DNA from: Candidatus Omnitrophota bacterium
GTDB taxonomy: Bacteria; Omnitrophota; Gorgyraeia; JACQQV01
Length of the DNA: 64,000 nt
NCBI GenBank assembly: GCA_016206785.1
Contig: JACQQV010000021.1
Location: 63,509-127,508 of the forward strand
Reading direction: 5' to 3'
A program made the position numbers and the translations under genes. The notes beneath the pieces were generated by a model, which was given only the letters and a program-made list of their open reading frames with translations, did no database searches and had not been told where the DNA came from. Of this stretch, positions 22,190-40,600 are shown piece after piece (within the stretch, counting starts at the first letter, position 1; the number at the start of each line of letters is the position of its first letter).

Positions 22190-23527
22190 ATGAAACTCAT
22201 TCAGCACCTTGAACAGCGTCAGATCCTTGCCCCTTCTTTAAGGCAAGCACTCCATATTCTTCAACTCTCCACCCTGGAACTCCAGACCCTCATGGAAAAA
22301 GAGCTCCAGGAAAACCCCTGTTTGGAAGAGGAGCGGCCCCGCGGGTCGCAGGAAAAGACACTCCCCTTTGAAACGGTTGTTCCCCCCACATCCCATTTTT
22401 CAGCCTCTGAAGAGGATGAGGAGATATGGAACTACCGGGAGAGTTTGGTGACCAAGCCGATAACGCTGGGTGAACATCTGCTCCATCAGCTCCGTCTCTT
22501 TTGTACTTCAGAACAGGATTGCCGGATTGGGGAAGTCCTCATCGGCTCCCTCGATGAGAATGGATACCTCCGTGAGTCGGTCGAAGAGATTGCGGCCCTG
22601 CATCATGTCTCCCCCACCGACGTCGAACGGCTTCTTTCTCTCATTCAGGGATTTGATCCTCTTGGCGTCGGTGCACGCGATCTTGCAGAATGCCTTCTTC
22701 TTCAACTCGACTCCCACTCTCCGCTCGAGTCCACAATCATTCGTGATCACCTCTCGGACCTACAGGCCAAACGAGTGGACCTCATCCAAAAGAAACTCAA
22801 GGTCTCCGAAGAAAAACTCAAGGAAGCGGTCCGCCGCATCATGGCCCTGGAACCGAAGCCGGGACGTTCCTTTAGCCATCCCAAAACCAGCTACGTGACT
22901 CCTGACATCACTGTAAAGAAGGGGAAGGAAAACACCTTTGAGATTCTCCTCAATGATGAGGAACTCTCCCCTCTACGACTCAACCCCACCTATGAAAGGC
23001 TTTTAAAGGGAAACAACCTCTCCGAATCAGATAAAACTTTCTTAAGAGAAAAAATGCAGTCGGCCCAGTTTCTCATGCGGGCCATTCGCCAAAGGAAAGA
23101 GACACTCCAGCAACTCGCAGAAGCGCTTGTCGCGTTTCAGAAAGAGTTTTTTGAGCAGGGCCCCAGCGCTCTCAGGCCCATGACGATGGATGAGATGGCG
23201 AGCTGCATTCAGAAGCACCGTTCGACGGTAAGCCGGGCGGTCAAAAATAAATTCATCCAGACTCCCTATGGTCTTTTCGAGATCAAATTCTTCTTCACGG
23301 GCGATATGGGCAGTTTGGAGAACGAGGGAGTTTCTTCGAGAGCGGTTAAGGAAAGAATTAAAGAATTGATACAAAATGAAAATCCCGCCGCTCCCTTAAG
23401 CGACGACGAGATCCTTCAAAAACTTCAGGAAGAGGGGATTTCGATTAAACGTCGGACGGTTTCCAAATATCGGCAAACCCTTGGGTTTTCTTCCTCTTTC
23501 CTCAGGAAAAATAGACTTTCCCGTTAA
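22190..23527 (+). CDS. rpoN: RNA polymerase sigma-54 factor RpoN, 445 aa
   Basis: The N-terminal region I is Gln/Leu-rich (LRQALHILQLSTLELQ). The C-terminal RpoN box is KRRTVSKYRQ, and a HTH precedes it. Confidence 0.9.
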   Translation: MKLIQHLEQRQILAPSLRQALHILQLSTLELQTLMEKELQENPCLEEERPRGSQEKTLPFETVVPPTSHFSASEEDEEIWNYRESLVTKPITLGEHLLHQLRLFCTSEQDCRIGEVLIGSLDENGYLRESVEEIAALHHVSPTDVERLLSLIQGFDPLGVGARDLAECLLLQLDSHSPLESTIIRDHLSDLQAKRVDLIQKKLKVSEEKLKEAVRRIMALEPKPGRSFSHPKTSYVTPDITVKKGKENTFEILLNDEELSPLRLNPTYERLLKGNNLSESDKTFLREKMQSAQFLMRAIRQRKETLQQLAEALVAFQKEFFEQGPSALRPMTMDEMASCIQKHRSTVSRAVKNKFIQTPYGLFEIKFFFTGDMGSLENEGVSSRAVKERIKELIQNENPAAPLSDDEILQKLQEEGISIKRRTVSKYRQTLGFSSSFLRKNRLSR

Positions 23528-24549
23528 AAAATCACCATCGTGAGCTTGGCGAGTTGCGCCAAAAGATCCAAGTTTTGGGCCTTGAGGCGATTTTCCCGCT
23601 TGTGACTATTGATGCTTAAGATCCCTAATACCTTCTCCTGGCGGGAAAGAGGCATGACAATTGAAGAATCAATCTCGCTTCTTTTCAAGCGGTGCTTCAG
23701 GGCTGGATCGAGGGGCATTTCCGGATCAATGAGAAGCGGCCGATTCCGCTGGGCCACCCATCCTGCAACCCCTTCCCCAACTTTTACCTCCGCTTTCTGA
23801 ATCACTTCCTCGTTCAATCCGAGGGCGGCTCGAATACGAAGCGTCTGGGAAGGTGAATCCAAAACCATCACAGAACCAGAATCGGCTTTGGTCGCCCGCA
23901 GCGCGAGATCAAGGAGGGTTGAAAAAAAGTTGTCCAATTCATCGGGCTTCGTCGCAAGATCCTTTTTCCAGGAAGAAGTGAACTCAGAGAGGATCTGTTC
24001 GTGTCCTCCCTTGAGAGCGGTCGGTTGGACAAGATAATTACAGACTTCCGACAAAAGCTCAAGCATCGCCTTCATGCCGACGAAGGAAAAAAGTTTTGCT
24101 TCCTGATCAAGGCCCTCCAAGGAAAGAAGATCCCATCCCTGCTCCTTGGCCAGTCCCTCCAATTCCTTTTGGGATCTCCTTGAACCGAGCAAAAGAGGAC
24201 CTACGACAAGATAGGCCATGACCCGTGAAGATTCACTAAAAATGGGAATTACTGCGTAGGTAAAACCGAGCGACTCGGTCCCTTCCGCCGCCGCGTGTGT
24301 GGCTTCGCTTTTGCGGATGAGGCTCTGAATGACTTCGGAAGGCGTCCTGAATTTCAGTCGGGAAGGATTTTTGGCAGCGGCGATCAACTCCCAGATTTTC
24401 GGCGTGTGTTGAGGGAGGGTCAACAGTTTCGCCCTGGGGTCAACGGTGTAGACATCTACGCCCAGAACTTCTGCGAAACGGCTCAGGATGAATGCCCATT
24501 GATCGACATTGATAAGATTCGGTAATGACTCGCCGCCTGGTTCAACCAT
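23524..24549 (-). CDS. GAF-domain protein, 341 aa
   Basis: ORF track. A GAF-like C-terminal region (MVLDSPSQTLRIRAALGLNEEV...SIVMPLSRQEKVLGILSINS). It converges with rpoN. Confidence 0.55.
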   Translation of the reverse strand: MVEPGGESLPNLINVDQWAFILSRFAEVLGVDVYTVDPRAKLLTLPQHTPKIWELIAAAKNPSRLKFRTPSEVIQSLIRKSEATHAAAEGTESLGFTYAVIPIFSESSRVMAYLVVGPLLLGSRRSQKELEGLAKEQGWDLLSLEGLDQEAKLFSFVGMKAMLELLSEVCNYLVQPTALKGGHEQILSEFTSSWKKDLATKPDELDNFFSTLLDLALRATKADSGSVMVLDSPSQTLRIRAALGLNEEVIQKAEVKVGEGVAGWVAQRNRPLLIDPEMPLDPALKHRLKRSEIDSSIVMPLSRQEKVLGILSINSHKRENRLKAQNLDLLAQLAKLTMVIF

Positions 24550-24584: not shown

Positions 24585-25988
24585 TTAAACATGCTGAAGC
24601 GCCTCACCCCTTCCTCCAAATAAATTGTATTTTCTCATCTTATTATAGAGGGTGGTGCGGTTGACACCGAGAAGCGCGGCCGCTTTTTTACGATTCCAAT
24701 GGCACTCCTGAAGAGTTCTTAAAATCATCTCTCTCTCCGGTTCGCCGAGCATCTCTTTTAAGGAGCGGCTTGTCGTCTCTCCTCCTTCGGCAGAAACCGA
24801 CAGTTGATGAAAAAGATCGGGTAGATCTCCTTCGGTTAAAAGATCTCCATGCCCAACGATGGTTGCCCGTTCCATGACATTCTCGAGTTCCCGGACATTG
24901 CCCGGCCACTGATACGCTTCGATCGCCTTAAGAAACCCATCCGAAACACCCGAAAATTTCTTTTTGTTCTTCACTGAAAATTTTTTTAAAAAATGTTCGA
25001 TAAGGACAGGGATATCCTCTTTCCGCTCACGGAGCGAAGGGAGCCCAATCGCAATGACATTCAGTCGGTAATAAAGGTCTTCGCGGAACTTTCCTTGCTC
25101 GATGAGTTCTTCCAAATTCTGATTGGTGGCGGCGATGATCCGGACATCGACCCGAATGGTCTTGGTGTCGCCGACCCGCTCAAATTCCCCCTCCTGGAGG
25201 ACGCGGAGAAGTTTAACCTGAAGCGCCGGCGAAAAGGTGTCAATTTCATCCAGAAGGATGGTGCCGCCGTCCGCCAACTCGAAACGCCCCATCCGGTCCT
25301 TGATGGCACCGGTGAAAGCGCCTTTCACATGGCCAAAGAGTTCGCTCTCCAAAAGGGTCTCAGGAATCGCCGCGCAACTGACCTCCACGAAGGGTTTGTC
25401 CTTCCGAGCCGGATCATTCGCATGAATGGCCAAAGCGACCAACCGTTTCCCCGTACCACTTTCCCCCTTGATGAGAAGGGTCGCTTTCGTATCAGCGATC
25501 GTCTCGATCAAGGTATAGATCTTCTGCATCTTCTCATGTTTTCCAATGAGCTGATGGAAGGTATCACGGCCTGTGCGGGCCAGTTGCTGCCGGAGGGCGA
25601 TGTTTTCTTCGATGAGGTTTTTCTGTTCAAAAAGTTTTTTGATGACGATCTTGATCTCACCGTCCATGATGGGCTTGGTGATATAATCGGCCGCCCCAAG
25701 CCGCATCGCCTCGACCGCCTGATCAATCGTCCCGTAGCCCGTGATGAGGATCACGGGGATCTCCGGGTGCTTTTCTCTCACCTGCTTCAAAAGATCTATC
25801 CCGGAGAACTTCGGCATTTTGATGTCGGCGATCACGATATCGATCGGAAGCCGCTCGATTTTTTGCAGGGCCTCTTCCCCATCGGAGGCCATCTCCGCTT
25901 CATACCCTTCGAAACGAAGGGTTTCGTAGAGAGATTTCCGAATGAGTGGTTCGTCGTCGACAATGAGGATGCGTCCGTTACCTGGCAT
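24585..25988 (-). CDS. sigma-54-dependent response regulator (NtrC family; candidate PEP-CTERM-system regulator PrsR-like)
   Basis: Receiver domain [14 protein letters not shown]...D, AAA+ sigma-54 activator domain ([28 protein letters not shown]), and a C-terminal Fis-type HTH. The likely start is [10 protein letters not shown]; the track ORF starts at 26015. Confidence 0.9.
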
Positions 25989-27291
25989 AAACCGTAGACT
26001 CCTTTGGAACCGCATAATTTAAGGGGAAATGGACGAGGAACGTGGCTCCCCGACGCTCTTCACTTTCCACCTCAATCCGCCCGCCGTAGGAGCGGACGAG
26101 CTCATAACAGATGGAAAGTCCCAGACCGCACCCTTTGTCGATCTCTTTCGTCGTAAAGAACGGATCGAAAATGAAGGGCCGATTCTCTTTTGAGATGCCA
26201 CATCCTGTATCCGAGATACGTACCGTGATTTCATGGTCGCTGCGAAGGGTTGCGATCCGAAGTGTCCCCCCGTGAGGCATCGCCTCCAGGGCATTCTTAA
26301 TGACATTGGTAAAGATCTGGTCGATCCCTTTGTCCAGGAGTAACGGAAGGGCGGGATGGTACGCTTTAATGACTTGAACCCTGGAAGTATAAAAGTAATC
26401 GTTCAGGTTGGAAAGGACATCTTCAAGAACTTCATTCACATCCACCGGATTCATCGTGACGCGCTGGCGACTGGAAAAGGTGAGGAGGTTTTTGACGATA
26501 TTCACCATCCGGGTAAGGCCCTGTTTCACCTCCAGGAGATATTCCCGGACCATGTCCCCTTCCTTCAGGTGATTGAGAGAGAGATGAATGTAGCGAAGGG
26601 TTCCGTCCAGAGGGTTGTTCAGTTCATGAGCGATCCCCGCCGCCAATTTTCCGATCGAGGCCATTTTCTGAGAAAGTTCAAGCTCTGTTCCCAGTTGACG
26701 CTTTTCCTCCATCAGAAGGAGGGCGGTCTTGCGGGCTTCCTCCGCGTCATGATGAGACTTCTTGGCTTCGGCACCCAGATGTATCCTTTCAATCCCTTCG
26801 GCCACGTAAGAGGCGAAAAGGGTCATCCACTCCAGATCTTTGGAGACAAAGGGACGCTTCGATTTTTTATCGGTGAGGTTCAAGATGCCTAACAATTTCC
26901 CTTGAAAGACGATGGGGACAGAAAGGAAGGAGGTGGTACGGTAATGGGAAAAGCCGTTCCCGTTTTGGAACCGGAAATCGTTACGGATATCCTCAACCAG
27001 AATGGGAGATTGCCGGCTTGCCACATATCCCAGGATCCCCTCATCGAGCTTGCGCCTCACCTCCGGAAAGTGGGAGAGATACTCTCCAGAGGCCCCTTTA
27101 AGGACCAACTCTTTCTTGTTTTCGTCGACGAGGAAAAGGGATCCGACCTCCGCTTGAACCAGGTTGAGCGCTTCCCTTAAGGAGGTGTCTAAAAGGGAAT
27201 TAAGGAATTTTGCAGTTTGAATTCGCTCCAAAGCGGCCCGGAAACGGAGAATCGGGTCGAGTGGTTTACGTCGAAAGGTATCAAGAAACAT
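25978..27291 (-). CDS. GAF-domain sensor histidine kinase (cytoplasmic), 437 aa
   Basis: N-terminal GAF, H-box HELNNPLDG, and HATPase_c (GGTLRI...DTGCGI...GLGLSI). Confidence 0.8.
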   Translation of the reverse strand: MFLDTFRRKPLDPILRFRAALERIQTAKFLNSLLDTSLREALNLVQAEVGSLFLVDENKKELVLKGASGEYLSHFPEVRRKLDEGILGYVASRQSPILVEDIRNDFRFQNGNGFSHYRTTSFLSVPIVFQGKLLGILNLTDKKSKRPFVSKDLEWMTLFASYVAEGIERIHLGAEAKKSHHDAEEARKTALLLMEEKRQLGTELELSQKMASIGKLAAGIAHELNNPLDGTLRYIHLSLNHLKEGDMVREYLLEVKQGLTRMVNIVKNLLTFSSRQRVTMNPVDVNEVLEDVLSNLNDYFYTSRVQVIKAYHPALPLLLDKGIDQIFTNVIKNALEAMPHGGTLRIATLRSDHEITVRISDTGCGISKENRPFIFDPFFTTKEIDKGCGLGLSICYELVRSYGGRIEVESEERRGATFLVHFPLNYAVPKESTVYAR

Positions 27292-28159
27292 TTTTCTGTG
27301 TCCTCCTTGATGATTTTAACCGCTCAATCCGTTTTTTGAAAAGAGCGACATCCTTATGGTCGGGATAAGATTGGATGAATGATTCGTAGATCGCGATTCC
27401 TTTTTCCGGCTGTTTGAGCCGCAGGCTATAGGCATCGATCCTTGGAAAGTACATCCGACTCATCCTGGGATAGGTGAGAATAATTTCTTTAAGGACCTCC
27501 AGGGCTTTTTCCCATTTCTTCTGTTCCTCATACCCTCCCAGAAGATAGCTCATCGCCAAAAACTGTAGAGGTTTTTTAGGATGTTCCTGAATCAGTCGGC
27601 GGTAGTAGTCGGCCGCGGCCTCGTAACTTTCACTCCCCTTCTTACTGTCTGTCTTAAGGTCATGCCTTGCAATATAAAGAGGGATCTCAAGCCCGAGTTG
27701 ACTCTCCGGATACCGATCTCTTAAAAGACGGTACTCCTTCAAGGCCGCCTCCCAATGACCTTCCTTTTCATACGAGAATCCTACCAAGAATTGGGACCTT
27801 GCGTTAAAGGCCTTATCGTCGGGAAAATCCTTCCGGATCTTTGTCAAAAAATTTCTTCCCTCTTGATATTTTTTTTCGAAGATGAGGAGTCCTGCAATGG
27901 AGAGGTTGGATTCCTTGATCAAGGTGGGGTTCCCGGGATAATCTTTGATGATACCCTCAAAGCGTTTCCGTGATTTCTCGAACAAAGGGGGCGGCGTCGA
28001 CTCGGGGTTTACCACAATTTTCTGGGAGAGGGCCTTTGCTTTCCAAAAGCGTGTTTCCGTCGCATAGGTATTCTTTGAGGCATCCTTGGATCCCAAGTAA
28101 CGCAAACCCCCGTAGACCAGAAGAAGGAGGATCAGATAAACGCTAAGCGCTTTTTTCAT
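27281..28159 (-). CDS. TPR-repeat protein with signal peptide, 292 aa
   Basis: The N-terminus MKKALSVYLILLLLVYGGLRYLGS is signal-like. Multiple TPR-like repeats follow. Confidence 0.6.
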   Translation of the reverse strand: MKKALSVYLILLLLVYGGLRYLGSKDASKNTYATETRFWKAKALSQKIVVNPESTPPPLFEKSRKRFEGIIKDYPGNPTLIKESNLSIAGLLIFEKKYQEGRNFLTKIRKDFPDDKAFNARSQFLVGFSYEKEGHWEAALKEYRLLRDRYPESQLGLEIPLYIARHDLKTDSKKGSESYEAAADYYRRLIQEHPKKPLQFLAMSYLLGGYEEQKKWEKALEVLKEIILTYPRMSRMYFPRIDAYSLRLKQPEKGIAIYESFIQSYPDHKDVALFKKRIERLKSSRRTQKNVS

Positions 28160-29160: not shown

Positions 29161-30189
29161 TTACTTCTTAATCAGTCTTTTTCTCCCGAAGCCGGCCATC
29201 CCCAGAAGACCTGAACCTAACAGGAGCATGGATGAAGGTTCTGGAATAACGCCATCCGTTGTTGGGGGGGGAGGTGGTTCATTAATCCCCGCTCTCCCGA
29301 AAACGTGGAAAAGAGCCAGGAAGATGTTGTCATCATGAGAAGGGTTTATGGTTGTCACCGCGATAGTGGTATCCCCATCGGTAATTTGTGGCACGAGGTT
29401 GTACCGCTCATGATCCTCTGCATAGGTTGGGAGTAAAGGTGAGAAGGGATCATCAAAGCCGCCGACAGTAATCAATTGACCATTCGAAATAGAACCGATC
29501 CCATCATCATTGTTCCCGGCATTTTCTGTGATCGTAACGCCATTCACGGTGATCGTGGATCTCTGACCGCAACAGCTGAAGTTATCTCCGATGATCATTT
29601 CTGCAAAAAACCCTGCATCGGCCGGATGGAGCGGATCAGCAAAATTGATTGCCGTTGCATCCCCGCCAACTGCAGAAAAACCATCGAGGATTCCCACTGT
29701 CGCAACGGGGAGGGCCGGGTGAGAGTAAACGACGACCAGCGCCTCACCATCCTGACCTCCGAATCCCTCTGTCACCGTGAAGTTATAAATACCGCCCGGG
29801 CCTCCATCAATGATCGGTTTGACAATCCCGGTCACATCGGCACGGGCCGAGCCCAATCCACAACAGGCTGTTACATTGAATACACTCGGACCGAACGCAA
29901 CAGCATTTCCGTCTAATGTTGCGGTAGGAGCTGCCAGGCTGCCGAAAAATCCGGTGTAGAGATACGCGTTCAACACCGTTGCCCCCACGGGCACACTTGC
30001 GGAAATCGTGCCTGTCTGTCCTGTACTTCCGAAACCATCCGAGGAGTAGCCGACATTTCCCACAAACGTAACGAACTCTGTCAAGCTGGCATGCGCTACT
30101 CCCGCGACGCCAAGGGTGAGAAATGCCACCCCGATGACTGCCACGAACACCTTTTTCACGATAGGCCCCCTTCCCTGTTCATGGTTCAT
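29161..30189 (-). CDS. PEP-CTERM sorting-domain protein, 342 aa
   Basis: N-terminal signal peptide, Gly/Thr-rich body, and C-terminus VIPEPSSMLLLGSGLLGMAGFGRKRLIKK (PEP motif, TM helix, basic tail). Confidence 0.85.
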   Translation of the reverse strand: MNHEQGRGPIVKKVFVAVIGVAFLTLGVAGVAHASLTEFVTFVGNVGYSSDGFGSTGQTGTISASVPVGATVLNAYLYTGFFGSLAAPTATLDGNAVAFGPSVFNVTACCGLGSARADVTGIVKPIIDGGPGGIYNFTVTEGFGGQDGEALVVVYSHPALPVATVGILDGFSAVGGDATAINFADPLHPADAGFFAEMIIGDNFSCCGQRSTITVNGVTITENAGNNDDGIGSISNGQLITVGGFDDPFSPLLPTYAEDHERYNLVPQITDGDTTIAVTTINPSHDDNIFLALFHVFGRAGINEPPPPPTTDGVIPEPSSMLLLGSGLLGMAGFGRKRLIKK

Positions 30190-30210
30190 GGTGTGTGTTG
30201 CAAAAAGACC

Positions 30211-30537
30211 TTACGAGGTCTTCTTTCTAAACAACCTTCGAAGCCTTGAGCGACCGAGAGCACTACTGAGAAGTCCGGTGCCGAACAAAAGAAGGGAGCC
30301 AGGTTCTGGAGTATGGGCAAGGGTCGATGTTTCATTCCCATCACTCCCCCCATTTTCTGAAGAGACAAGCGTCACGACCCCGCTACTACTTCCGTAATAC
30401 TCTCCACCTGAACTCCCTGTTCCACTCAGTGCTCCTAAAAGACTGCTGAACGCCCCTCCCCCGCCTCCCTCCTCACAACCTGAAAGGAGGATAAGGAGAA
30501 GGGGTAAAAGGAGGAGAATAGATTTATCTCTGAACAA
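30211..30537 (-). CDS. small PEP-CTERM protein with lipoprotein-type signal, 108 aa
   Basis: LLSGC lipobox-like segment, Gly/Ser-rich body, and C-terminus TPEPGSLLLFGTGLLSSALGRSRLRR. Confidence 0.75.
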   Translation of the reverse strand: MFRDKSILLLLPLLLILLSGCEEGGGGGAFSSLLGALSGTGSSGGEYYGSSSGVVTLVSSENGGSDGNETSTLAHTPEPGSLLLFGTGLLSSALGRSRLRRLFRKKTS

Positions 30538-30579
30538 TCAAAATCACTTCCTTAATACAATACCCAGATTCGCCGAGAC

Positions 30580-31221
30580 TTAGGCGGCGTTCCTTTTCCT
30601 TCTTGCAAACCCCAATGCGCCGAGAAGCCCTGACCCGAAGAGGATCATGCTGGTCGGTTCCGGAATGGTGGTATGGAATCCGGCATCCGGAATCCGGTCA
30701 TCGGGTGGTGCGCCTGCGTTATCCAGAAGGCTAAAGGTATTGAACCCTCCGAGCGGAAAGCTGGCAAACATCCCTGATGGGATACCATATTCCACCGCGG
30801 ATCCCAAGACGGCCGAGGGCGCGCCTCCGACAGGAGTTCCACTTCCATCGAAGACGGTAAAGCCTGAGGCACGGAAGTCAAAGATCCTGTCGGCCAGGTC
30901 TGTGAAATCACCGTCCGCGTTGGTATCGAGTCCTGTGGTGTAGAAAACAGGGTCGATCGGCGGAAGGATATCGAGCGACGTGAAGGTCGGCACCCCATAG
31001 AGTTCGATGAGGACATAAAGTGCCCCCGCGTCACTCTGCATCGCAACCCGCGAGATGTCATAGGCATCCGGGATCGCTCCCTCATTCGGGTCAAACCCGT
31101 TGATCAAAAGTCCTGCCACCCATTCGCCGGCGGAATTAATCCCGTCGACGACGACGGCAGAGGCATCACTGGTAAATAAAAGAAGTGATGCCATCACTAC
31201 TGCTAACGTTACCTTTTTCAT
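30580..31221 (-). CDS. PEP-CTERM sorting-domain protein, 213 aa
   Basis: Signal peptide MKKVTLAVVMASLLLFTSDASA. C-terminus IPEPTSMILFGSGLLGALGFARRKRNAA. Confidence 0.85.
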   Translation of the reverse strand: MKKVTLAVVMASLLLFTSDASAVVVDGINSAGEWVAGLLINGFDPNEGAIPDAYDISRVAMQSDAGALYVLIELYGVPTFTSLDILPPIDPVFYTTGLDTNADGDFTDLADRIFDFRASGFTVFDGSGTPVGGAPSAVLGSAVEYGIPSGMFASFPLGGFNTFSLLDNAGAPPDDRIPDAGFHTTIPEPTSMILFGSGLLGALGFARRKRNAA

Positions 31222-32012
31222 TCTATTTCCTCCTTTTTAAACAACGTTTTCTTCTTACGCTTTAATAATCCTAAAAGACCCACACCTAAGAGCCCAAAAG
31301 AACTCGGCTCGGGGATGACATGGAGACATCCTCCAAGTTGCGGGCAGATCGCCCATTCCTCAAACCCATCATTGGAGGCGAAGTTGGTGCCGAGTTGGGA
31401 ATAGAGATAAACAAAATCCGAGTCCGCGGCTGTTGTAAAGAGACTCTCCGGAATGTAGGCGAACATATCCCCCTTGCCGCTGCCAGGATTTAGGATGTAA
31501 TTCAACTTCACATAACTATCTCCCGCAGCATCGAGATCATAGATAGGAACGCCGAGAGAAGCAAGATTGGAGGTGATGCTACCGCTATTTTTAATGAAGA
31601 TTTGCAGTTCGTCCAACGAGAGGAAAGCATCCGGCGCGGTTTGGTTAATGTCTAACAAAAACTCGCGGTAATCGACACCATTAATCGTAACGACGGGTAC
31701 ACTCCCTAAGGTAATGGAATGAGTAAAGACTGGACTTGTGTTCACATCGGGCCAAAGAGGGAGCGGGCGACCATCTGTGTTATATCCCTCTTCGGTCCCA
31801 TTATGTTGAATGCGAACAAATGAATCAATGATGCCGGTCCCTGTTGCATGGCGGTTAAGGTCAGTCTGCAGGAAGAAAGCCCCATTAACGAAACCTGAGG
31901 AGGCCGCGGTTGTGAGGTCCAGGACGACCGCCTGCGCTTCGGAAACGCTACCCATAATGCCGATGCCTACCATCATGAGAAGAGCGCTACAAAAGAATAC
32001 GAACCGCTTCAT
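31218..32012 (-). CDS. PEP-CTERM sorting-domain protein
   Basis: C-terminus VIPEPSSFGLLGVGLLGLLKRKKK. The likely start is MKRFVFFCSALLMMV at about 32012. The track ORF starts at 32024. Confidence 0.8.
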   Translation of the reverse strand: MKRFVFFCSALLMMVGIGIMGSVSEAQAVVLDLTTAASSGFVNGAFFLQTDLNRHATGTGIIDSFVRIQHNGTEEGYNTDGRPLPLWPDVNTSPVFTHSITLGSVPVVTINGVDYREFLLDINQTAPDAFLSLDELQIFIKNSGSITSNLASLGVPIYDLDAAGDSYVKLNYILNPGSGKGDMFAYIPESLFTTAADSDFVYLYSQLGTNFASNDGFEEWAICPQLGGCLHVIPEPSSFGLLGVGLLGLLKRKKKTLFKKEEIE

Positions 32013-32023
32013 TCTCACCCCCA

Positions 32024-32824
32024 TTACCTCGCCCCTTTACCGGTTAAGACCACAACAAACGTGTTTACCAGAATCCGAAGATCGACCAAAAGACACATCT
32101 TGCGAATATAGAGAAGATCGTATTTTACTTTCTTCCGGACATCCTGAACCGTCTCGTCGTATTTGTGCCAGACCTGTGCAAGTCCCGTAATCCCCGGTTT
32201 GACCTTCAGTCTTCTCTCGTAATCCGGAATCGCTTCCCGAAGCTGATTCACAAATTCAGGCCGCTCCGGTCTTGGACCGATAAAGCTCATCTCCCCGCGG
32301 AGCACGTTCCAGAGTTGCGGAATCTCATCGAGGTGCATCTTCCGGATCCATTTCCCACCGGCAATGAGACGGGGGTCATTCTCTTTGGCCCAGACCGCCC
32401 CGGTCTCTTTTTCGGCATCCACACGCATGGTACGTAACTTATAAATGGTAAAGAGGACTCCCTCTTTTCCGACCCGCGCTTGTTTAAAGAAAATAGGACC
32501 TGGTGAAACGATCTTGATGAAGAGCCCAACAAGGATTAAAAGCGGAAGGGCCGAGAGGAGTCCGAGGAAAGATACGGTGCAGTCGAAAATTCTTTTAAAC
32601 TCCTGAAAACGGCGGCGGGCAAAACGGACGATCGCCCCCACTACGCCACCACCCCCCAATAAGATCGCACTGCTCGGTTCAGGAAGAACCGCGTGATTAT
32701 TCGCAAGGTCGCTGGCCGAAGAAGAACCGACGTAGAGAAACGAAGCCAACCCGATGAGGGCGAAAATGAATACTCCCACGACCAGTGCAATCCGGATTTT
32801 CCCTTTGAGACTTTTATGCGACAT
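32024..32824 (-). CDS. bacterial sugar transferase (polyprenyl-phosphate glycosyl-phosphotransferase, Bac_transf/EpsB-like) with an N-terminal TM segment and an internal PEP-CTERM-like motif
   Basis: The C-terminal catalytic domain is ...IVSPGPIFFKQARVGKEGVLFTIYKLRTM...DEIPQLWNVLRGEMSFIGPRPERPEF... The N-terminal region MSHKSLKGKIRIALVVGVFIFALIGLASF... contains VLPEPSSAILLGGGGVVGAIVRFARRR. The track ORF extends to 32926, but a sigma-54 promoter lies inside that extension, so the start is probably MSHKS at about 32824. Confidence 0.75.
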   Translation of the reverse strand: MSHKSLKGKIRIALVVGVFIFALIGLASFLYVGSSSASDLANNHAVLPEPSSAILLGGGGVVGAIVRFARRRFQEFKRIFDCTVSFLGLLSALPLLILVGLFIKIVSPGPIFFKQARVGKEGVLFTIYKLRTMRVDAEKETGAVWAKENDPRLIAGGKWIRKMHLDEIPQLWNVLRGEMSFIGPRPERPEFVNQLREAIPDYERRLKVKPGITGLAQVWHKYDETVQDVRKKVKYDLLYIRKMCLLVDLRILVNTFVVVLTGKGAR

Positions 32825-32894
32825 GAAACTTCTTTCTTTGTTCAGAGTTGAACCAAACAGGGCATAAAAATAGCGTGACATACTGTTATAAGAA

Positions 32895-32909
32895 GCATGT
32901 TTCGTGCCA
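32895..32909 (-). promoter_or_regulatory. sigma-54 (-24/-12) promoter on minus strand: TGGCACGAAACATGC
   Basis: Plus-strand gcatgtttcgtgcca at 32895-32909 is minus-strand TGGCACG-AAAC-ATGC, matching the consensus TGGCACG-N4-TTGC(W) with a single change (TTGC to ATGC). It lies about 70 nt upstream of the proposed MSHKS start. rpoN and a sigma-54-dependent regulator are encoded nearby. Confidence 0.6.
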
Positions 32910-33005
32910 ACTCCCTTTCTTCTCAAAAAAATTTCTCTGTTTTCATAATTTTTAACTCTTTTATCTACAATAAGTTACGAGATTATTTTTGGCCGTTTTT
33001 AGGAC

Positions 33006-33118: not shown

Positions 33119-33742
33119 TCAGGCGTGGGGTTCTTGGGTTAAGATCGGGAGAAGTTCTCCGATAAACCGTTTTGCTGTTATGAGGGATTCCTCTTCACTC
33201 TTTGAAATCGGAACGATGATCCGGACCATAGCCCCTCCCAATCCCTTACCGGTCGCTTGCTTCATGACCCACCGGATCTGCTGAGTGAAGTAATCATTGG
33301 TGAATTCCTTGCCCAACATGTACCAATAGAGAACGACGTTTTGGCTCTTTCCCTCTCCGGCAAGGAGTCGGTTTACCGTTAGGGTTTGACCGGGAAAGGA
33401 AAGACTCTCCTTCGTCGTCTTTGTGACAGAAACCCCGCTTCCAATCAGACAGACGACCGGAGGATGGCAGACACGGCGGTTGGTTTCGGAATAGATCACA
33501 AACAGATCAACGGATTCACCCTTTTTGTTTCGATACTGCCGCAGGGCCAAATTCCTTGTTTCAAGAATCTCGTAATCATGGTCGGAGACGGCGACGTCAC
33601 TTGCTTTCCATTCACCGATCTCCATCGGAATTTCGCGGATGTCCCGAATATCCTTCTCCACCCTCTGCATCTGGTAAAAGTGGAAGGAAATGGCACCGAC
33701 GATGACGAAAAGGAAACTGCTGACAACCCAATGCTTCTTCAT
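33119..33742 (-). CDS. EpsI-family exosortase-associated protein, 207 aa
   Basis: N-terminal TM helix. ...GESVDLFVIYSETNRRVCHPPVVCLIGSGVSV... matches the EpsI signature. It overlaps the exosortase gene stop by 4 nt. Confidence 0.7.
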   Translation of the reverse strand: MKKHWVVSSFLFVIVGAISFHFYQMQRVEKDIRDIREIPMEIGEWKASDVAVSDHDYEILETRNLALRQYRNKKGESVDLFVIYSETNRRVCHPPVVCLIGSGVSVTKTTKESLSFPGQTLTVNRLLAGEGKSQNVVLYWYMLGKEFTNDYFTQQIRWVMKQATGKGLGGAMVRIIVPISKSEEESLITAKRFIGELLPILTQEPHA

Positions 33743-34545
33743 CGGAGAATCCTTCCGACGGTGGAGAGGCCACCCAGTGCGAGTCCGAACACGACGAATC
33801 CGGAGAAATCATGAAAGAATTTGAGGGCCGCTTCAACGCCGTAGATATCGGCGATACCTGCAAGAAGGATGATGCGGACGATATTGGCAATCATGGCGAT
33901 CGGAATGGAAGAAAGGAAAAAGAGCGTTTTCCTCGGAAAAGAGGCCTGTTTGAGATACGCAAAAAGGACGCCGAGTGTCAGAAGCGACAAAAGCGACCGA
34001 AGGCCGCTACAGGGATCTTCCACCGCAACCACCGCATTTTTCATGTAGATCAGATGACCTTTTTGAAGAGCGGGAAACCCGATCGCATGAAGTACATGGG
34101 TCGCACACATCGCTGCGAAAAGTTTAAGACGCACCGTCGCCGTTCCAACGACCACGAGGGGAAACGGAACCATGAAAAGGAGAAAGATTATCGGAAAGGC
34201 CGCCGCCCGAAGCATCTTTTTCCCCCAGAGAAAAAGCACGAGTCCCGTGACGGTTAAGAGGATGGAGAAGGCCGAAGTGAAATAGACCTTGATCAAAGCA
34301 CTCACCAGATGGACCAAGAGTCCTGTGATCAGCAGAGGAAGGCCCCATCGGGAGGGCGAAGGAACGATAGTGGCGATCTCCTTCCGTTTACGCCAAACCA
34401 GATAAAGACTCACAAAGGGAATCAAGAATCCATGGCCGAAATAGGAATCTTTCGCGCTCCAACGGTCCACCATCCAGACAATCGTCGGGAAATAAGCGAA
34501 GGTGAGCAGAAGACTCATGACACCGAGTGAAATCCACTTTTTCAT
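33739..34545 (-). CDS. exosortase (EpsH/Xrt family)
   Basis: Polytopic membrane protein with the exosortase Cys motif AVEDPCSGLRSLLSLL and the Asn/Arg motif IANIVRIILLAGI. The likely start is MKKWISLGVMSLLLTF at about 34545. The track ORF's extra 24 N-terminal residues are translated from the upstream repeat region. Confidence 0.85.
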   Translation of the reverse strand: MKKWISLGVMSLLLTFAYFPTIVWMVDRWSAKDSYFGHGFLIPFVSLYLVWRKRKEIATIVPSPSRWGLPLLITGLLVHLVSALIKVYFTSAFSILLTVTGLVLFLWGKKMLRAAAFPIIFLLFMVPFPLVVVGTATVRLKLFAAMCATHVLHAIGFPALQKGHLIYMKNAVVAVEDPCSGLRSLLSLLTLGVLFAYLKQASFPRKTLFFLSSIPIAMIANIVRIILLAGIADIYGVEAALKFFHDFSGFVVFGLALGGLSTVGRILR

Positions 34546-34566
34546 AGGGCTGTCTTCCCGAAAAAT

Positions 34567-34694
34567 TCCAATAACCAAATCACAATGACCAAATAAGCTC
34601 CAATACCCAAATTCCAAACACCAAACCGAGGTTTAATTATTGGTGATTGGTTCTTGGTGATTATTTGGAACTTGGAATTTGGTGCTTGGTGATT
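34567..34694. repeat. imperfect palindrome built from degenerate heptad repeats: ACCAAAT-like units at 34567-34626, a central gaggtttaatta, then ATTTGGT/TTGGTGA-like units at 34639-34694
   Basis: Left arm is ccaataaccaaatcacaatgaccaaataagctccaatacccaaattccaaacaccaaacc. Right arm is ttggtgattggttcttggtgattatttggaacttggaatttggtgcttggtgattg. The arms are approximately reverse-complementary. The structure lies in the GT2-exosortase intergenic region. Confidence 0.6.
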
Positions 34695-35825: not shown

Positions 35826-36608
35826 CTATTTCTCCTTTACTGCCTTCCCTCGGACTCTTTCATAGAGGGTGTGGCCCAAGAGCCGATAGGCCGATTGCTT
35901 GACCAGATACTCAAAAACGAGATGACCCTTTGTACGCCCCTCTACGATAGAAATAAAATCATCAAGCGTGTAGGGCCGTTTGATGGTCCACCGCTTAAGA
36001 CGGAACGGATCTGCGTCTTGGCGATTCACGCCGATGTCGGAGGTGCAGGCGGCCCGATAGCCGACTCCTTTGACCGCTTCTAAGACGCGGTGGTTGTAAC
36101 GGCCGCGCGGGATTGAGAAAAAAGGAACCTCTTTTTTAAGAATCTCTTCCAGTCTCTTCTTGGATCGGGTCAGTTGATCATGAAGTTTTTGATCGTCGAG
36201 CCGCGTCAAGAAAATGTGGTCGAACCCATGGGAGCCAACTTCCATCCCTTCTCCATTCAACCGTCTAAGTTCATCCGTGGTTAGATGATCTTCGGTATTC
36301 AATGTCCCGGGATTCACGAAGAAGGTTGTAGTAAAGCCGTGACGTTTCAAAATCGGAAATGCAATGGAAAAGTCGCTTGAGAGGCCATCGTCAAAAGTGA
36401 TCACGATCGGTTTCTCAGGAAGCGGTTTGCCGGTGAGCCAGTTTACCAGTTCTCTTAAAGAGATGGAATGAAAGTTCCCCCTTGCAAGATAGGCCATCTG
36501 TGCCTCAAACTGCGCCTGGGTGAGTGTGTACAATCCATTCCCGGCGCTGTTTTCTTCCACCAAGCCATGATACGTCAAGATTGGAACTGACGGTGCGTTG
36601 CGTTTCAT
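35826..36608 (-). CDS. polysaccharide deacetylase (NodB-type)
   Basis: Carries VPILTYHG...ITFDDG...HGFDHI motifs. The likely start is MKRNAPSVPILTYHG at about 36608. The track ORF extends to 36683. Confidence 0.8.
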   Translation of the reverse strand: MKRNAPSVPILTYHGLVEENSAGNGLYTLTQAQFEAQMAYLARGNFHSISLRELVNWLTGKPLPEKPIVITFDDGLSSDFSIAFPILKRHGFTTTFFVNPGTLNTEDHLTTDELRRLNGEGMEVGSHGFDHIFLTRLDDQKLHDQLTRSKKRLEEILKKEVPFFSIPRGRYNHRVLEAVKGVGYRAACTSDIGVNRQDADPFRLKRWTIKRPYTLDDFISIVEGRTKGHLVFEYLVKQSAYRLLGHTLYERVRGKAVKEK

Positions 36609-37618
36609 CTGGGTCTCGGCAGACCCACCCCGAACAGAATGTGGGCGATGGTATTGACCATAAAGAAATCGATCTGGCCCCACTCACGCGCAAGCTGTGC
36701 CAAAGGAGCCGTGGATCGAAAAATGGCAAAGATGACAAGATTTCCGACGAGGACAAGCCAAAGAAACCCGATGGGAACGGTCGTCCCAAAACGCCAAAGA
36801 TCGGACCTCTTCCCCGCGAACTGTTGCGATGTCCTCCATTGCCCTGTCCGGCTCAGGAGCTTACGTGCATAGAAGACATACCAGATAATGTAGTGGTAGA
36901 TGACGATTAGCGCAAACCGTTCTGCAGAGGTGAATAGAGGTTCGCCAAATGGCTGCGCCAAACACAAACCGCCCAGAATGCCCACCGCGCTCCATCCAAA
37001 AAGTGAACGGGATGAACGGGGGGCAGGCAGGAGATAGTACCATCCGTACGCGATCCAGAGGACCGTCCAGAGGGCAGCCACAACCGGCAGCGCCCTATGC
37101 CACATATGATCTGCCATCGCCAACTGATCGATCAAGACCAGACCAACCGCCAGCGTCACCCAGAAGGTGCCACGTGTTGTCCAAGCGGCCGGCTGATACC
37201 CGTTTGCCGTCTGCTGCCTGAAAAGAACCTCGTTGGAGGCATGATGGGTCATAAACACCGCTTCGACGAATAGGAAATTTACCTGCGTGGGCAACCACCA
37301 TCTCAGCAAAGCGGCATAAGCGCCCATGACTGTGAGGAAGGCGGCAAGGTACCCGAAGGCGGCCGGCAGATTCCCATATCGTCGACAGACTAACCTCCAG
37401 GTGAAGATGTAGGCCAGGGTGAAATGTCCGTAGCCAAGAAAGTTGCGCATACGGATGATGTTCAGAAAGTGCAAGAGATTCGCACTCGCTGCCCACGCCA
37501 GCAAAAGAAACAGACACCCCATGGACCATGCCGTCACGCTTCCGTAATCGTAGAGTCCGGGGTGCGAGAGGCTGACTGATTGGGCAGAAAGAGTCACGCT
37601 GGACTGATGTTGTCTCAT
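36605..37618 (-). CDS. polytopic membrane protein, unknown function, 337 aa
   Basis: ORF track. At least 8 hydrophobic helices, rich in Trp/Tyr. Confidence 0.4.
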   Translation of the reverse strand: MRQHQSSVTLSAQSVSLSHPGLYDYGSVTAWSMGCLFLLLAWAASANLLHFLNIIRMRNFLGYGHFTLAYIFTWRLVCRRYGNLPAAFGYLAAFLTVMGAYAALLRWWLPTQVNFLFVEAVFMTHHASNEVLFRQQTANGYQPAAWTTRGTFWVTLAVGLVLIDQLAMADHMWHRALPVVAALWTVLWIAYGWYYLLPAPRSSRSLFGWSAVGILGGLCLAQPFGEPLFTSAERFALIVIYHYIIWYVFYARKLLSRTGQWRTSQQFAGKRSDLWRFGTTVPIGFLWLVLVGNLVIFAIFRSTAPLAQLAREWGQIDFFMVNTIAHILFGVGLPRPR

Positions 37619-40600
37619 TCTGCACCCTTTAACGATTCAATGGCCTGCGCGATCCGACCTCGTAACTCCAAGAGACCCTCCGGCTGTTTCGGGTATTCTC
37701 GCATCGAACGGGCAAGGGTCTCCGCATCATTTAACGCCGTCTCTGCCTGTTGAATGGTCTCTGCCAGGAGACTCCCCTTCGCTTTAGCCCTTGCAATCTT
37801 ATCCGACAGAATCGCAATCATGTCATAATCCTCCATCCCATCGCGTAGTAGTTCGAGACGGATGGAACCGACCGGACCCTCCGGGCCCGGATAGAAAAGA
37901 ACCCCATTGTCGTTCTGTTCCCACTTGGTGTTCTCCGGATTGGTGTAGGGGTTTACGGTCCAGAAGTTCACGCACCAATAGAGAAGCCCTGTCACTTTGT
38001 ACTTCCAGCACATCCAAGGAAGAATCCGGTAGGCCATCATCGGGTAATCGATCACAAAGGTCGGATAGGGATAGGAGGGACCTGAACAATAGATCCAAAG
38101 TTCCTTTCCCGCTTTTCTAATCTCTTCCGCCTGTGCGGGGTCGAAAGAGACGTTTCTAAGACAAACAATATCGATATCCTTAAACCAGTCCGCATATGAA
38201 GAGTACATCGGCGTTTCCATAAGAGTGACCATATTCCTCAGGAAAGGGCTTGCTTGATGAACCTTCTCTGCGACTCTCGCGACCTTCTCTGTACCGGCAG
38301 GAGATTCATCAGAGGTGTAAAGATAAGAGCGGTCGAGGAGATTGTGATCTCGTAAAATGGCGGCGTAGCTCTGATAAAGGGGGACAACGGGGGTAAGGTC
38401 TGCTGGCCAATTGTTTCCGCTGCTCCCACTATATTTTCCGATACCGAAAGAGGTCATTCCAAGATTCAAAAGGCGCTTGACTCGCTCAATACTTTCTGGT
38501 CTTGCCGGATCGATATTGAGGATCGGAGAAATCCGATAGCGAAGCATCCTCTCGTAATACCGGTCTTCCAATTGGGAAATAGATTCTCGCCACTTCGGCC
38601 ACCAATCGGGAAAGAAATTTTGATAACCGTCGACCAAACGACCCGTATAGAGGTCAAAAGCGGTCTTGAGGCGTGGGGTCTTCGGAAGTTCAAAGTCCCA
38701 AATGTGTACCTCAAGAGCTACTTTCTTCTGAGGACCATTTTTGGGTTGAATGAAAATTGATCCTTGATAAAGACCGGCCGGTGTCCCGGGGGGTGCGTAG
38801 ACGGTCACCCAAATCGGCTGAAGCTTCCCTCGCTTCACGTCAAAAGTTTCTTTTGAAGGAAGGGGATCGGGAACAAAGCCGATCAGTTCCGGGAGATACT
38901 GTGTTTTCCTGAGTTCAACATATCCGACCGGATAGGTCACGATTTCTTTTTTGTCAATCTTAGTGCCTGTCGTCGCATTCACAAGGTCTTCTGCCTGAAT
39001 CCGAACCTCTTTTAAATCCCCCGCGAGAGAAGAGAGAACGATCTGCGTCGATTCGTATTCGTTGGCAGCGAGGGAGAGTTGAATCGGATTGGCATGCCCA
39101 AGACCTTTGAATGGGGCATCTCTGAGAACCCTTTGGAATGGAGAAACAATTCGCACCTCGTAATCGAGGCCTTTGGCTTCGGACTTGGCAACGATTTCCT
39201 CTTCTTTCTTTTCATAGTAAGGTTTAAGAAAAGAGGGATTCCTGACACCGAGCAAATAAGGAACCGTGTAAAGAAGCGGGGGGACCCGATCATAAGTGAT
39301 TTTGCCGAAGACCATCCCGTTCCGGAGCGGATCTTCACTACGGTCCTGGGCCTGAATCTGCGCCATGAGTCGGCGACGGCCCTCTTCCATATATTTTGCC
39401 TCGCCGGTGAGTTCGTACGAATAAGCGAGCGCATCGAAGAAAGGAAGATACTTTTCGTTCTGAATCAAATAATCGGTCCCTTTTAGGATTGCCTCTTTGA
39501 CACGGGGATTACCCGTGAGACGATGATACGTGATGAGAGACGGAAGGGTATGAAGTGCCATAAATCGGCTATCCGATTCATCCGGCCAGCTGTCCGCGCG
39601 GGGGTTATAGTCTTTCGCCCAACTTCCGTCTTCTCGCTGGCCCTCCACAAAGAGAGCGGCCCACCGGTCAGCCGCTTCCTTATATCGCTTGTCGCGCGTT
39701 GCCTGATAAAGGAGGGTCTCACCCCAGAGGAGATTGGCAATCGCCCGTTGAGGGGCGATATCCGGATGTCGGGTATAGGTAATCGGGTTCTTGAGATAAA
39801 AACTTCCGACCTCTTTCGCCACATCAAAAGAGCGTTCATAACCGGTTAAATAATAATAGAGAAGAAAACCGAGGAGATGCGTATGGGAGGCCTCATCGGA
39901 GCGTCCTCCCCAATGGTTTGCGTTATGCCGGTGCATCGCTCCCACATGGCTATGGTCACTGTAGATTTTTCCCTTAAGCCGAGGATCCCTCTCAACCATG
40001 TCATAGTGGATGGTATCGACATCCATGATGTGACGGGAAGAGGCTTCCCCAAAAGCAAAATATTTGTAAAGGCCGGTCCTTGCAAATTGTAAAAGGGACG
40101 CTGCATGCGTTCCGACCTGTTCGCAGTTAAACCAACCCCATCGTCCCTCGGGATGCCAACCCCATTCCGGATAGGATTTATCATAGGCATCTTTGCGATA
40201 CCAGAAACGGGTGTCTCCATAATCGAGCATCCCGTACCAGCCGAACGCCTTCGGCTGTCGCGCCGCCCAATCAAAAAGACGGGCGATGAGTTCCTCCCCT
40301 TCCACAGAAACTTGGTGAGGGCCGAGAGATCCGAGCGCGTAACTGACGTACACCCACTCGGGGTCTGCGTGAAGAATCGGTGGATGCTGAAAAGCACTCA
40401 GCGTCTGATGAAGGGTTTGGGGTTCCGCAACACCTGAATGAAAGGAGAAAATAAGTTCATGAGTCTTACCGAGTCCGAAGGCGGAACCGCGTGCGACCGC
40501 ATCGGGCCCATAGGCCGCATCCTGTGTTTCGAGATTGAGTGGACCTGCCGAACGAGGCCAGAGAGAGATCTTGATTTTCCCTGCAACATCCACAAGGATC

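Follow-up and report, generated by a model that had tools for sequence, protein, structure and literature searches.

A small phosphoglycosyl transferase with an internal PEP-CTERM-like signal in an exosortase locus of Omnitrophota

A gene for a small phosphoglycosyl transferase (PGT) in the 64-kb stretch of Omnitrophota DNA analysed here (the window) encodes, ahead of the catalytic domain, a module built like a PEP-CTERM protein-sorting signal, in which a Pro-Glu-Pro (PEP) tripeptide is followed by a Gly-rich hydrophobic helix and an Arg cluster (VLPEPSSAILLGGGGVVGAIVRFARRRF). The gene lies downstream of an exosortase gene and upstream of a run of PEP-CTERM genes, and the module is kept in frame in all 117 full-length close homologues, counted as protein clusters. 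We tentatively read the N-terminal 75 residues as a minimal working PEP-CTERM-type protein placed in front of a PglC-like small PGT, a reading that we hold with somewhat less than even confidence. That the priming PGT is a client of the exosortase through a genuine internal PEP-CTERM signal, perhaps cleaved, so that glycan initiation and protein sorting form one machine, is possible but doubtful. The parts, namely the PEP-CTERM/exosortase system and the PglC-type PGTs, are known; their combination and the internal position of the signal appear to be new.

Results

Layout of the protein

Residue numbers follow the 266-residue protein that starts at ATG 32824, which is 100% identical to P0001, annotated at NCBI as a 'sugar transferase' from a metagenome-assembled genome (MAG) of Candidatus Omnitrophica. 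A preliminary description of this DNA had reported a PEP-CTERM-like motif in the open reading frame (ORF), between the first hydrophobic helix and the Bac_transf domain. The ORF and the peptide are exactly at that place with all three elements present, and the motif is flanked by a helix spanning residues 5-35 in an AlphaFold2 (AF2) model and by the Bac_transf domain at residues 77-260. The PEP tripeptide abuts the hydrophobic helix directly (LPEPSSAILLGGGGVVGAIV), and the basic cluster after the helix, RFARRRF, joins the PGT domain without a spacer. At residues 46-73 of 266, with 193 residues after it, the module is far from the C-terminus, and the same internal placement is found in all homologues. 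The first hydrophobic stretch is 27 residues long, compared with a family median of about 17, and may be a signal anchor. The linker at residues 38-45 appears to be a vestigial passenger on the periplasmic side.

Motif scores against chance

The motif is confirmed as real, beyond what chance would produce. Generic PEP-CTERM hidden Markov models give borderline scores, at or below their curated cut-offs: TIGR02595 (cut-off 16) scores 15.6 bits on the whole protein and 16.3 bits on the isolated N-terminus of 77 residues, and PF07589 (cut-off 20.7) scores 15.7 and 18.5 bits, respectively. A precomputed PF07589 match exists for 4 of 120 homologues. Because the generic models were borderline, we made a lineage-specific profile from the C-terminal tails of 74 PEP-CTERM genes that adjoin a homologous PGT gene in other genomes, with none taken from the window. 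Searched against all six-frame ORFs of at least 60 residues in the window, this profile gives 15.3 bits for the PGT segment and 3.9 bits for the next ORF, and it scores 19-46 bits on the window's four PEP-CTERM proteins. Among 1,748 ORFs of 36 related loci, every PGT scores 10.6-36 bits and the best unrelated ORF 4.6 bits, setting aside PEP-CTERM proteins that a simple C-terminal pattern had missed.

Conservation among close homologues

The homologue set comprises the 120 best database hits, which share 57-83% identity, are typically about 258 residues long and come mostly from Omnitrophota MAGs; three are N-terminally truncated gene calls, leaving 117 full-length sequences. To the question whether the motif is conserved or unique, raised in the preliminary description, the answer is that it is conserved throughout this set. 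In the sequences aligned on the motif, the first Pro and the Glu are present in 115 of 115, and the third position is Pro in 108 (94%), Ala in 6 and Val in 1. The Pro and Glu columns carry 4.3 bits, compared with about 1 bit in each of the ten columns ahead of the motif. Every synonymous codon is used at these positions in 34 distinct DNA sequences (first position: CCT 18, CCG 10, CCC 3, CCA 3; second: GAA 19, GAG 15; third: CCG 12, CCA 10, CCC 7, CCT 3), and the constraint therefore acts on the amino acids.

Beyond the tripeptide, Ser/Thr at +4, Leu at +7 and Gly at +11 are almost fixed in the PGT family, and PEP-CTERM substrates share these positions. The PGT signal also has features that the substrates lack, namely S-T-G at +9 to +11, W at +15 and RFARKRF, whereas the substrates have GLGLxGL and variable basic tails. 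The length of the linker in the PGT family stays near 10 residues, and most members have a small-Tyr-Ala-Gln motif (C/S/A-Y-A-Q) 10-13 residues before PEP, which would look like a signal-peptidase site. Across the family the N-region has a net charge of +3, the linker a charge of about zero and the 14 residues after the second helix a median of 6 Lys or Arg; by the positive-inside rule, this fits a predicted in-out-in topology.

Catalytic domain

The catalytic domain looks intact. It scores 217.9 bits against PF02397 (gathering score 27) and belongs to the only Bac_transf ORF within the window. By sequence it matches PglC (8e37, E 1.6e-28) and the catalytic domain of WbaP (8t53), and Foldseek searches with the AF2 model recover the same two structures (E 2e-12 and 8e-10, respectively); pLDDT is above 90 across most of the domain. 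The pair D166-E167 (in LDEIPQL) and P184-R185-P186 (in GPRPERP) are invariant in 113 aligned sequences and align with the PglC motifs LDELPQL and GPRP. We take D166-E167 to be the catalytic dyad, as in PglC. In the AF2 model residues 73-106 form one helix with pLDDT above 90, in which P94 is invariant; residues 77-106 presumably correspond to the re-entrant helix of PglC. The basic cluster extends to residue 73. Because residue 10 of PglC aligns with residue 76 here, the part of the protein ahead of about residue 67 counts as an addition to the PglC-like enzyme. The models of large PGTs from exosortase and exopolysaccharide (EPS) loci, TIGR03013 and TIGR03025, match over only their last ~190 profile positions (252-443 and 256-445) and below their cut-offs (266.3 versus 393.35 bits and 288.2 versus 295.55 bits). 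The earlier label of EpsB-type transferase thus gives way to that of a PglC-like small PGT. In a sub-branch of relatives (P0125, P0139, P0161), an Arg/Lys-rich insertion of 20-35 residues, e.g. RVGLNRRKKRGNRSYQGDRRKANRFGNLF, occurs in the catalytic domain after RVG.

Gene order and promoter

Related loci were retrieved with the junction peptide FAR[RK][RS]Fx[EDQ]FK; nearly all of them carry the label Omnitrophota. A core gene order recurs in 3 long metagenomic contigs and 31 species-level genomes, wherever the flanking DNA suffices: exosortase, EpsI, a sigma-54 promoter, the PGT, one to six PEP-CTERM genes (often translationally coupled) and a membrane protein of 290 residues. In the window the exosortase gene is two genes upstream of the PGT gene, and the 294-bp gap after the EpsI gene holds the promoter. 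The PEP-CTERM genes downstream, for which three had been reported, number four (29161-32024), and the first two are translationally coupled to the PGT gene. Many of the related loci have a small ORF of about 38 residues between the promoter and the PGT gene (consensus like MKK.I....E.KKDIDVYLAIQR), for example at 7880-7996 of L003 and in L001, L012, L013, L019, L022, L025 and L030; it is absent from the window and is fused into the PGT gene call in some database entries, such as P0078.

Of 32 distinct loci, 30 have the -24/-12 motif TGGCAC-N5-TTGC, extended as TGCTTATAT, ahead of the PGT gene. For proteobacterial PEP-CTERM genes, a mean distance of 71 nt to the upstream sigma-54 site has been reported (Haft et al. 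2006, PMC1569441). Judged by motif and distance, the promoter type and spacing of the proteobacterial PEP-CTERM genes would now be seen in Omnitrophota as well (Table 1), and the PGT gene would thus be controlled like an exosortase substrate and transcribed together with the substrates.

The promoter also bears on the start of the gene. A longer minus-strand ORF, 32926-32024, encloses the gene for the 266-residue protein, and the preliminary description had placed the start at its TTG (32926). This start, which would give a protein of 300 residues, and a second upstream start at ATG 32881 were rejected because the sigma-54 promoter TGGCACGAAACATGCT lies inside the longer ORF and because in L027 a stop codon follows a block that would be read in frame as 'YALFGSTLNK' (the 'RYFYALFGS' region). 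ATG 32824 is most likely the start. The block itself (TATGCCCTGTTTGGTTCAACTCTGAACAAAGA, 32829-32866, minus strand), in the interval between promoter and start, is conserved at the DNA level in L006 and L027. It is regarded as non-coding because of the L027 stop codon, and could be a sub-clade-specific regulatory element of the 5' untranslated region.

Origin of the architecture

When 1.84 billion representative proteins were searched with a profile, 79,280 PGTs were recovered, among which the Omnitrophota family collapses to a few clusters at 50% identity. About 20 of the best 150 representatives at 50% identity have a PEP/helix/basic module before the catalytic domain, with passengers of about 10 to about 250 residues; proteins with long passengers include P0130 (458 residues), P0128 (485), P0268 (480), P0168 (428), P0161 (421) and P0139 (372). 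Three types of passenger are homologous to free-standing PEP-CTERM proteins (E 1e-61 to 4e-12). Those of P0128 and P0268 correspond to the C-terminal half of a 525-residue PEP-CTERM protein of L037 (E 1e-49 to 1e-61) as well as to the gene that immediately follows the PGT gene in several Omnitrophota loci, that of P0161 matches proteins of L042, L005 and L029 (E 1e-37 to 1e-24), and that of P0130 matches a protein of L012 (E 4e-12). For the passengers of P0238 and P0139, no homology was detectable among the PEP-CTERM proteins compared. In L041 the genes for exosortase and EpsI are followed by a series of PEP-CTERM genes, of which a fusion gene is the last; the genes for the 290-residue protein and a TPR protein come next.

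The homology of the passengers to PEP-CTERM proteins implies that the architecture likely arose when a PEP-CTERM protein and a small PGT became fused. The fusion would be either old or recurrent, and the Omnitrophota form appears to be one in which the passenger has shrunk to a stub and the signal has been kept. In clustering of the catalytic domains by the unweighted pair group method with arithmetic mean, which can give no more than a rough idea of where PEP was gained or lost, the PEP-bearing PGTs fall into one small-PGT branch, intermixed with PEP-less ones. A search of the protein database with a 76-residue junction profile returned almost only short gene fragments. Eight relatives have lost PEP while keeping signal peptide, passenger, helix and basic cluster (P0129, P0131, P0137, P0164, P0252, P0166, P0154 and P0176), and P0134 has PEV instead. 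The PEP-less relatives lie mostly on contigs of 1.5-4 kb, and the locus of P0129 (L038) is the one informative case.

The earlier suggestion of a fossil in-frame fusion therefore holds in part. A fusion origin agrees with the homologies of the passengers, while the ideas that it is local and that it is a fossil do not survive the in-frame conservation and the invariance of Pro and Glu under synonymous turnover. No homologue has a separate small PEP-CTERM ORF at this position, and there is no frameshift, the two arrangements that had been named as signs of a local event or a sequencing error.

The wider locus

The features of the locus are listed in Table 1. The exosortase passes the TIGR02602 and TIGR04178 models but scores 197.9 bits against the XrtA model TIGR03109 (cut-off 208), and would therefore be of an unnamed XrtA-like subtype; its start is probably an internal ATG (MKKWISLG...) near 34545. 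In two unrelated loci, PF05635 ('23S rRNA intervening sequence protein') genes occur beside or between exosortase and EpsI (L003 5935-6288, L041 1820-2173). The 290-residue membrane protein is here called memb290. For the sigma-54-dependent response regulator PrsR is the closest model after AtoC, and rpoN, this PrsR-like sigma-54 activator and the target promoter are all inside 11 kb.

Table 1 Features of the phosphoglycosyl transferase gene and its locus in the window.
Feature	Position	Strand	Evidence or remark
Small PGT gene with PEP signal on board	32024..32824	minus	ORF; 266 residues
Sigma-54-type -24/-12 promoter (putative)	32894..32909	minus	TGGCACGAAACATGCT; one mismatch to TGGCACG-N4-TTGCW; ends 69 nt before ATG
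Signal peptide or signal anchor, residues 1-37 (predicted)	32714..32824	minus	Basic N-region MSHKSLKGKIR, long hydrophobic helix, small-x-small SSA
Short linker, residues 38-45	32690..32713	minus	Variable, uncharged or acidic, without excess of Lys/Arg
Internal PEP-CTERM-like module, residues 46-73	32606..32689	minus	VLPEPSSAILLGGGGVVGAIVRFARRRF; PEP codons 32675-32683
N-terminal PGT membrane helix, residues 77-106	32507..32596	minus	KRIFD...SALP...IKIVSPGP; aligns from PglC residue 10
Bac_transf catalytic domain	32045..32596	minus	PF02397, residues 77-260, E 9.6e-65
Exosortase	33739..34617	minus	PF09721 E 7.8e-68; TIGR02602 174 bits (cut-off 105.6); TIGR04178 71 bits
EpsI, exosortase-associated periplasmic protein	33119..33742	minus	TIGR02914 97 bits (cut-off 42.8); PF11984 E 2.7e-32
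PEP-CTERM protein 1	31218..32024	minus	PF07589 28.3 bits, TIGR02595 21.8 bits; start codon overlaps PGT stop codon by 1 nt
PEP-CTERM protein 2	30580..31221	minus	PF07589 28.3 bits, TIGR02595 23.0 bits; 4-nt overlap with protein 1
PEP-CTERM protein 3, small, Gly/Ser-rich	30211..30537	minus	PF07589 24.8 bits, TIGR02595 19.9 bits
PEP-CTERM protein 4	29161..30189	minus	PF07589 26.3 bits, TIGR02595 20.3 bits
memb290, multi-pass membrane protein, 290 residues	28143..29015	minus	Without family assignment; conserved; constant companion of the PGT branch
TPR protein	27281-28159	minus	Pfam
GAF-histidine kinase	25978-27291	minus	Pfam
Sigma-54-dependent response regulator	24585-26015	minus	Pfam; PrsR model TIGR02915 424.5 bits (cut-off 502.6)
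PocR-GAF protein	23524-24549	minus	Pfam
rpoN	22190-23527	plus	Adjoins the PocR-GAF protein

Further upstream on the minus strand are genes for glycosyltransferases, a Wzy_C-type protein, acetyltransferases and deacetylases, a 1,589-residue protein, a deacetylase and a GT2 protein; the deacetylases of the locus are identified by Pfam as polysaccharide deacetylases. The Wzy_C protein (47195-48784, minus) has its best NCBIfam match to TIGR03097, a 'putative O-glycosylation ligase, exosortase A system-associated', at 51 bits against a cut-off of 188, and is a candidate for moving the PGT-primed glycan onto the PEP-CTERM proteins. Inside this EPS/exosortase locus, the 1,589-residue protein (37615-42384, minus) combines PcRGLX-like (rhamnogalacturonan-lyase-like) domains with a GH123 catalytic domain; smaller versions of it, together with a Peptidase_C1 gene, are found at the same place in L001 and L003. 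Two proteins of the EPS locus, at 36605-37618 (minus, 337 residues) and 43499-45010 (minus, 503 residues), have no match in Pfam or NCBIfam.

Discussion

The proposed mechanism starts with the basic N-region and the first helix, which would insert the chain with its N-terminus inside, after which signal peptidase would probably cut behind the conserved small-Tyr-Ala motif. The linker of about 10 residues and PEP would lie at the periplasmic face, the Gly-rich helix would cross back, and RFARRRF would lead into the cytoplasmic PGT on the inner leaflet. The adjacent exosortase would recognise the PGT signal as it does the signals of the four co-transcribed PEP-CTERM proteins and would most likely cleave the PGT at PEP. 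We judge cleavage the likelier outcome because the relatives with long passengers look like ordinary substrates. The PGT would stay anchored by its former sorting helix, in or beside the exosortase/EpsI machinery. The effect would be that the first step of lipid-linked glycan synthesis is tied, in place and amount, to the processing of PEP-CTERM proteins, which are believed to bear heavy glycosylation and/or to be linked to exopolysaccharide (Haft 2006, PMC1569441; Haft 2023 preprint). That mature PEP-CTERM proteins are joined to the N-terminal amine of the PGT stub is unlikely, as surface proteins would then be held at the inner membrane.

A functional exosortase recognition site, which the preliminary description had offered beside the fossil fusion, is favoured by the conservation of the module, by its strictly kept gene order with exosortase and EpsI, and by the type of promoter. 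Several observations weigh against it. The generic models score the signal at or below their cut-offs, and in the AF2 model, with a mean pLDDT of 82, residues 30-70 have low values (56-67). In L038 the PGT gene has lost PEP and still stands directly after two PEP-CTERM genes; together with several deeper relatives that have no PEP, it implies that the signal is dispensable in some lineages, and it argues against a strict dependence on exosortase. The exosortase would also have to tolerate a cytoplasmic extension of 190 residues after the signal. Finally, since only about 10 residues are periplasmic, cleavage would free nothing useful, and the benefit would therefore have to be the encounter itself.

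Some of these observations would be expected if the module were simply the inherited anchor of an old fusion, its two helices holding or orienting the PGT and its PEP capping the second helix or aiding insertion while the exosortase ignores it. We consider this rather unlikely. Small PGTs tolerate many N-terminal additions, the eight PEP-less relatives keep helix and basic cluster, including the one in L038 despite its adjacent PEP-CTERM genes, and the borderline scores agree with such an anchor. The same relatives, which retain the hairpin, imply that it has no structural need of PEP, and a structural explanation is therefore harder to reconcile with Omnitrophota sequences in which Pro and Glu are never lost in 117 clusters. 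Around these residues the linker is randomised and the codons are saturated, while conservation reaches the positions +4, +7 and +11 that are common to substrates, and the strict gene order and shared sigma-54 control would have to be coincidence. Alternatively, exosortase or EpsI could bind the signal without cleaving it, the stub being too short or a poor substrate, and the PGT would be a stable subunit or pseudo-substrate that scaffolds a priming-sorting complex or gates exosortase activity. All of the evidence from conservation, synteny and profiles applies equally to such docking, and the conserved features that set the PGT signal apart from the substrates, with a linker held near 10 residues, speak for it. 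We nevertheless regard it as quite unlikely: relatives with substrate-homologous passengers of 100-250 residues look like normal cleavable substrates, and a non-cleaved exosortase ligand is without precedent. The probability that a PEP-CTERM ORF was joined to a transferase gene through a frameshift, chimeric assembly or faulty gene calling is close to nil. The rarity of the architecture and the 300-residue ORF, which starts too far upstream, are all that speaks for an artefact, whereas the frame is continuous, the junction between basic cluster and PglC homology is seamless, and an artefact is excluded by the many independent in-frame copies, the same layout being present in the 117 protein clusters, which are independent, and in 31 species-level genomes that stem from many studies.

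The signals of sortases, exosortases, archaeosortases and rhombosortases are by definition C-terminal tags on exported proteins. These systems would have a wider scope if a conserved internal signal left a cytoplasmic enzyme on the side that is retained after the cut. As a fusion of the Rosetta-stone type, the protein would provide a direct link between the exosortase pathway and the first committed step of lipid-linked glycan synthesis, a connection previously seen as gene neighbourhood only. If priming and sorting do form one machine, this would point to the lipid-linked glycan made by the PGT as the material with which PEP-CTERM proteins are glycosylated or to which they are attached, and would bear on what exosortases join their substrates to. 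It would be a testable physical link from glycan priming to sorting, in hosts that are uncultured. Current annotation reads only 'sugar transferase', and a dedicated family model would mark an Omnitrophota-wide type of exosortase locus.

Comparison with known systems

No description of a PGT with an internal signal was found in the literature on PEP-CTERM together with phosphoglycosyl or sugar transferases, PF02397 or Omnitrophota, and NCBIfam has no model for the PEP-bearing PGT architecture. The closest known system is PEP-CTERM/exosortase itself (EpsH, XrtA-type; PMC1569441, TIGR02595, PF07589). As there, a tripartite signal follows an N-terminus that resembles a signal peptide, the gene lies near exosortase and EpsI and is preceded by a sigma-54 promoter at a distance of about 70 nt, and the locus encodes PrsR/PrsK/PrsT-like regulators. 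Unlike the regular signals, that of the PGT is internal, is followed by a cytoplasmic enzyme of 190 residues, has an exported part of about 10 residues and scores at or below the cut-offs; the PEP-CTERM domain lies, in practically every case, near the C-terminus (Haft 2006, PMC1569441). Motif, helix, basic cluster and exosortase are all in place, while the position differs and the scores are borderline, and we therefore describe the module as one that would work like a PEP-CTERM signal rather than as a regular member of the family.

In Gram-positive streptococci, C-terminal peptides released by sortase have a second function in 'C-pep' sensing. The likeness is that a membrane remnant left after the cut is functional; the remnant is a short signalling peptide there and would be a whole enzyme here, where the cleavage is hypothetical. 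With the small monotopic PGTs of the PglC type (PF02397; PDB 8e37, 8g1n), the protein shares the catalytic core, Asp-Glu dyad, PRP motif and N-terminal membrane helix, at 36-37% identity over about 185 residues. PglC starts where residue 67 or later does here, and three parts are extra in this protein: a signal-like helix, a stub on the periplasmic side and the membrane-spanning PEP-CTERM helix. TIGR03013 (XrtA/PEP-CTERM system glycosyltransferase, EpsB_2) and TIGR03025 (EPS_sugtrans) likewise describe PGTs of exosortase or EPS loci with a related catalytic domain (266-288 bits), but the four-helix and cytoplasmic-domain N-terminus of these large PGTs is absent here. Control of EPS priming through protein-protein contact on a PGT is known from EpsW-EpsZ in Myxococcus (PMC12802240), where a large PGT and a cytoplasmic response regulator are involved, whereas a membrane sorting signal and an exosortase would take these parts in the Omnitrophota system proposed here.

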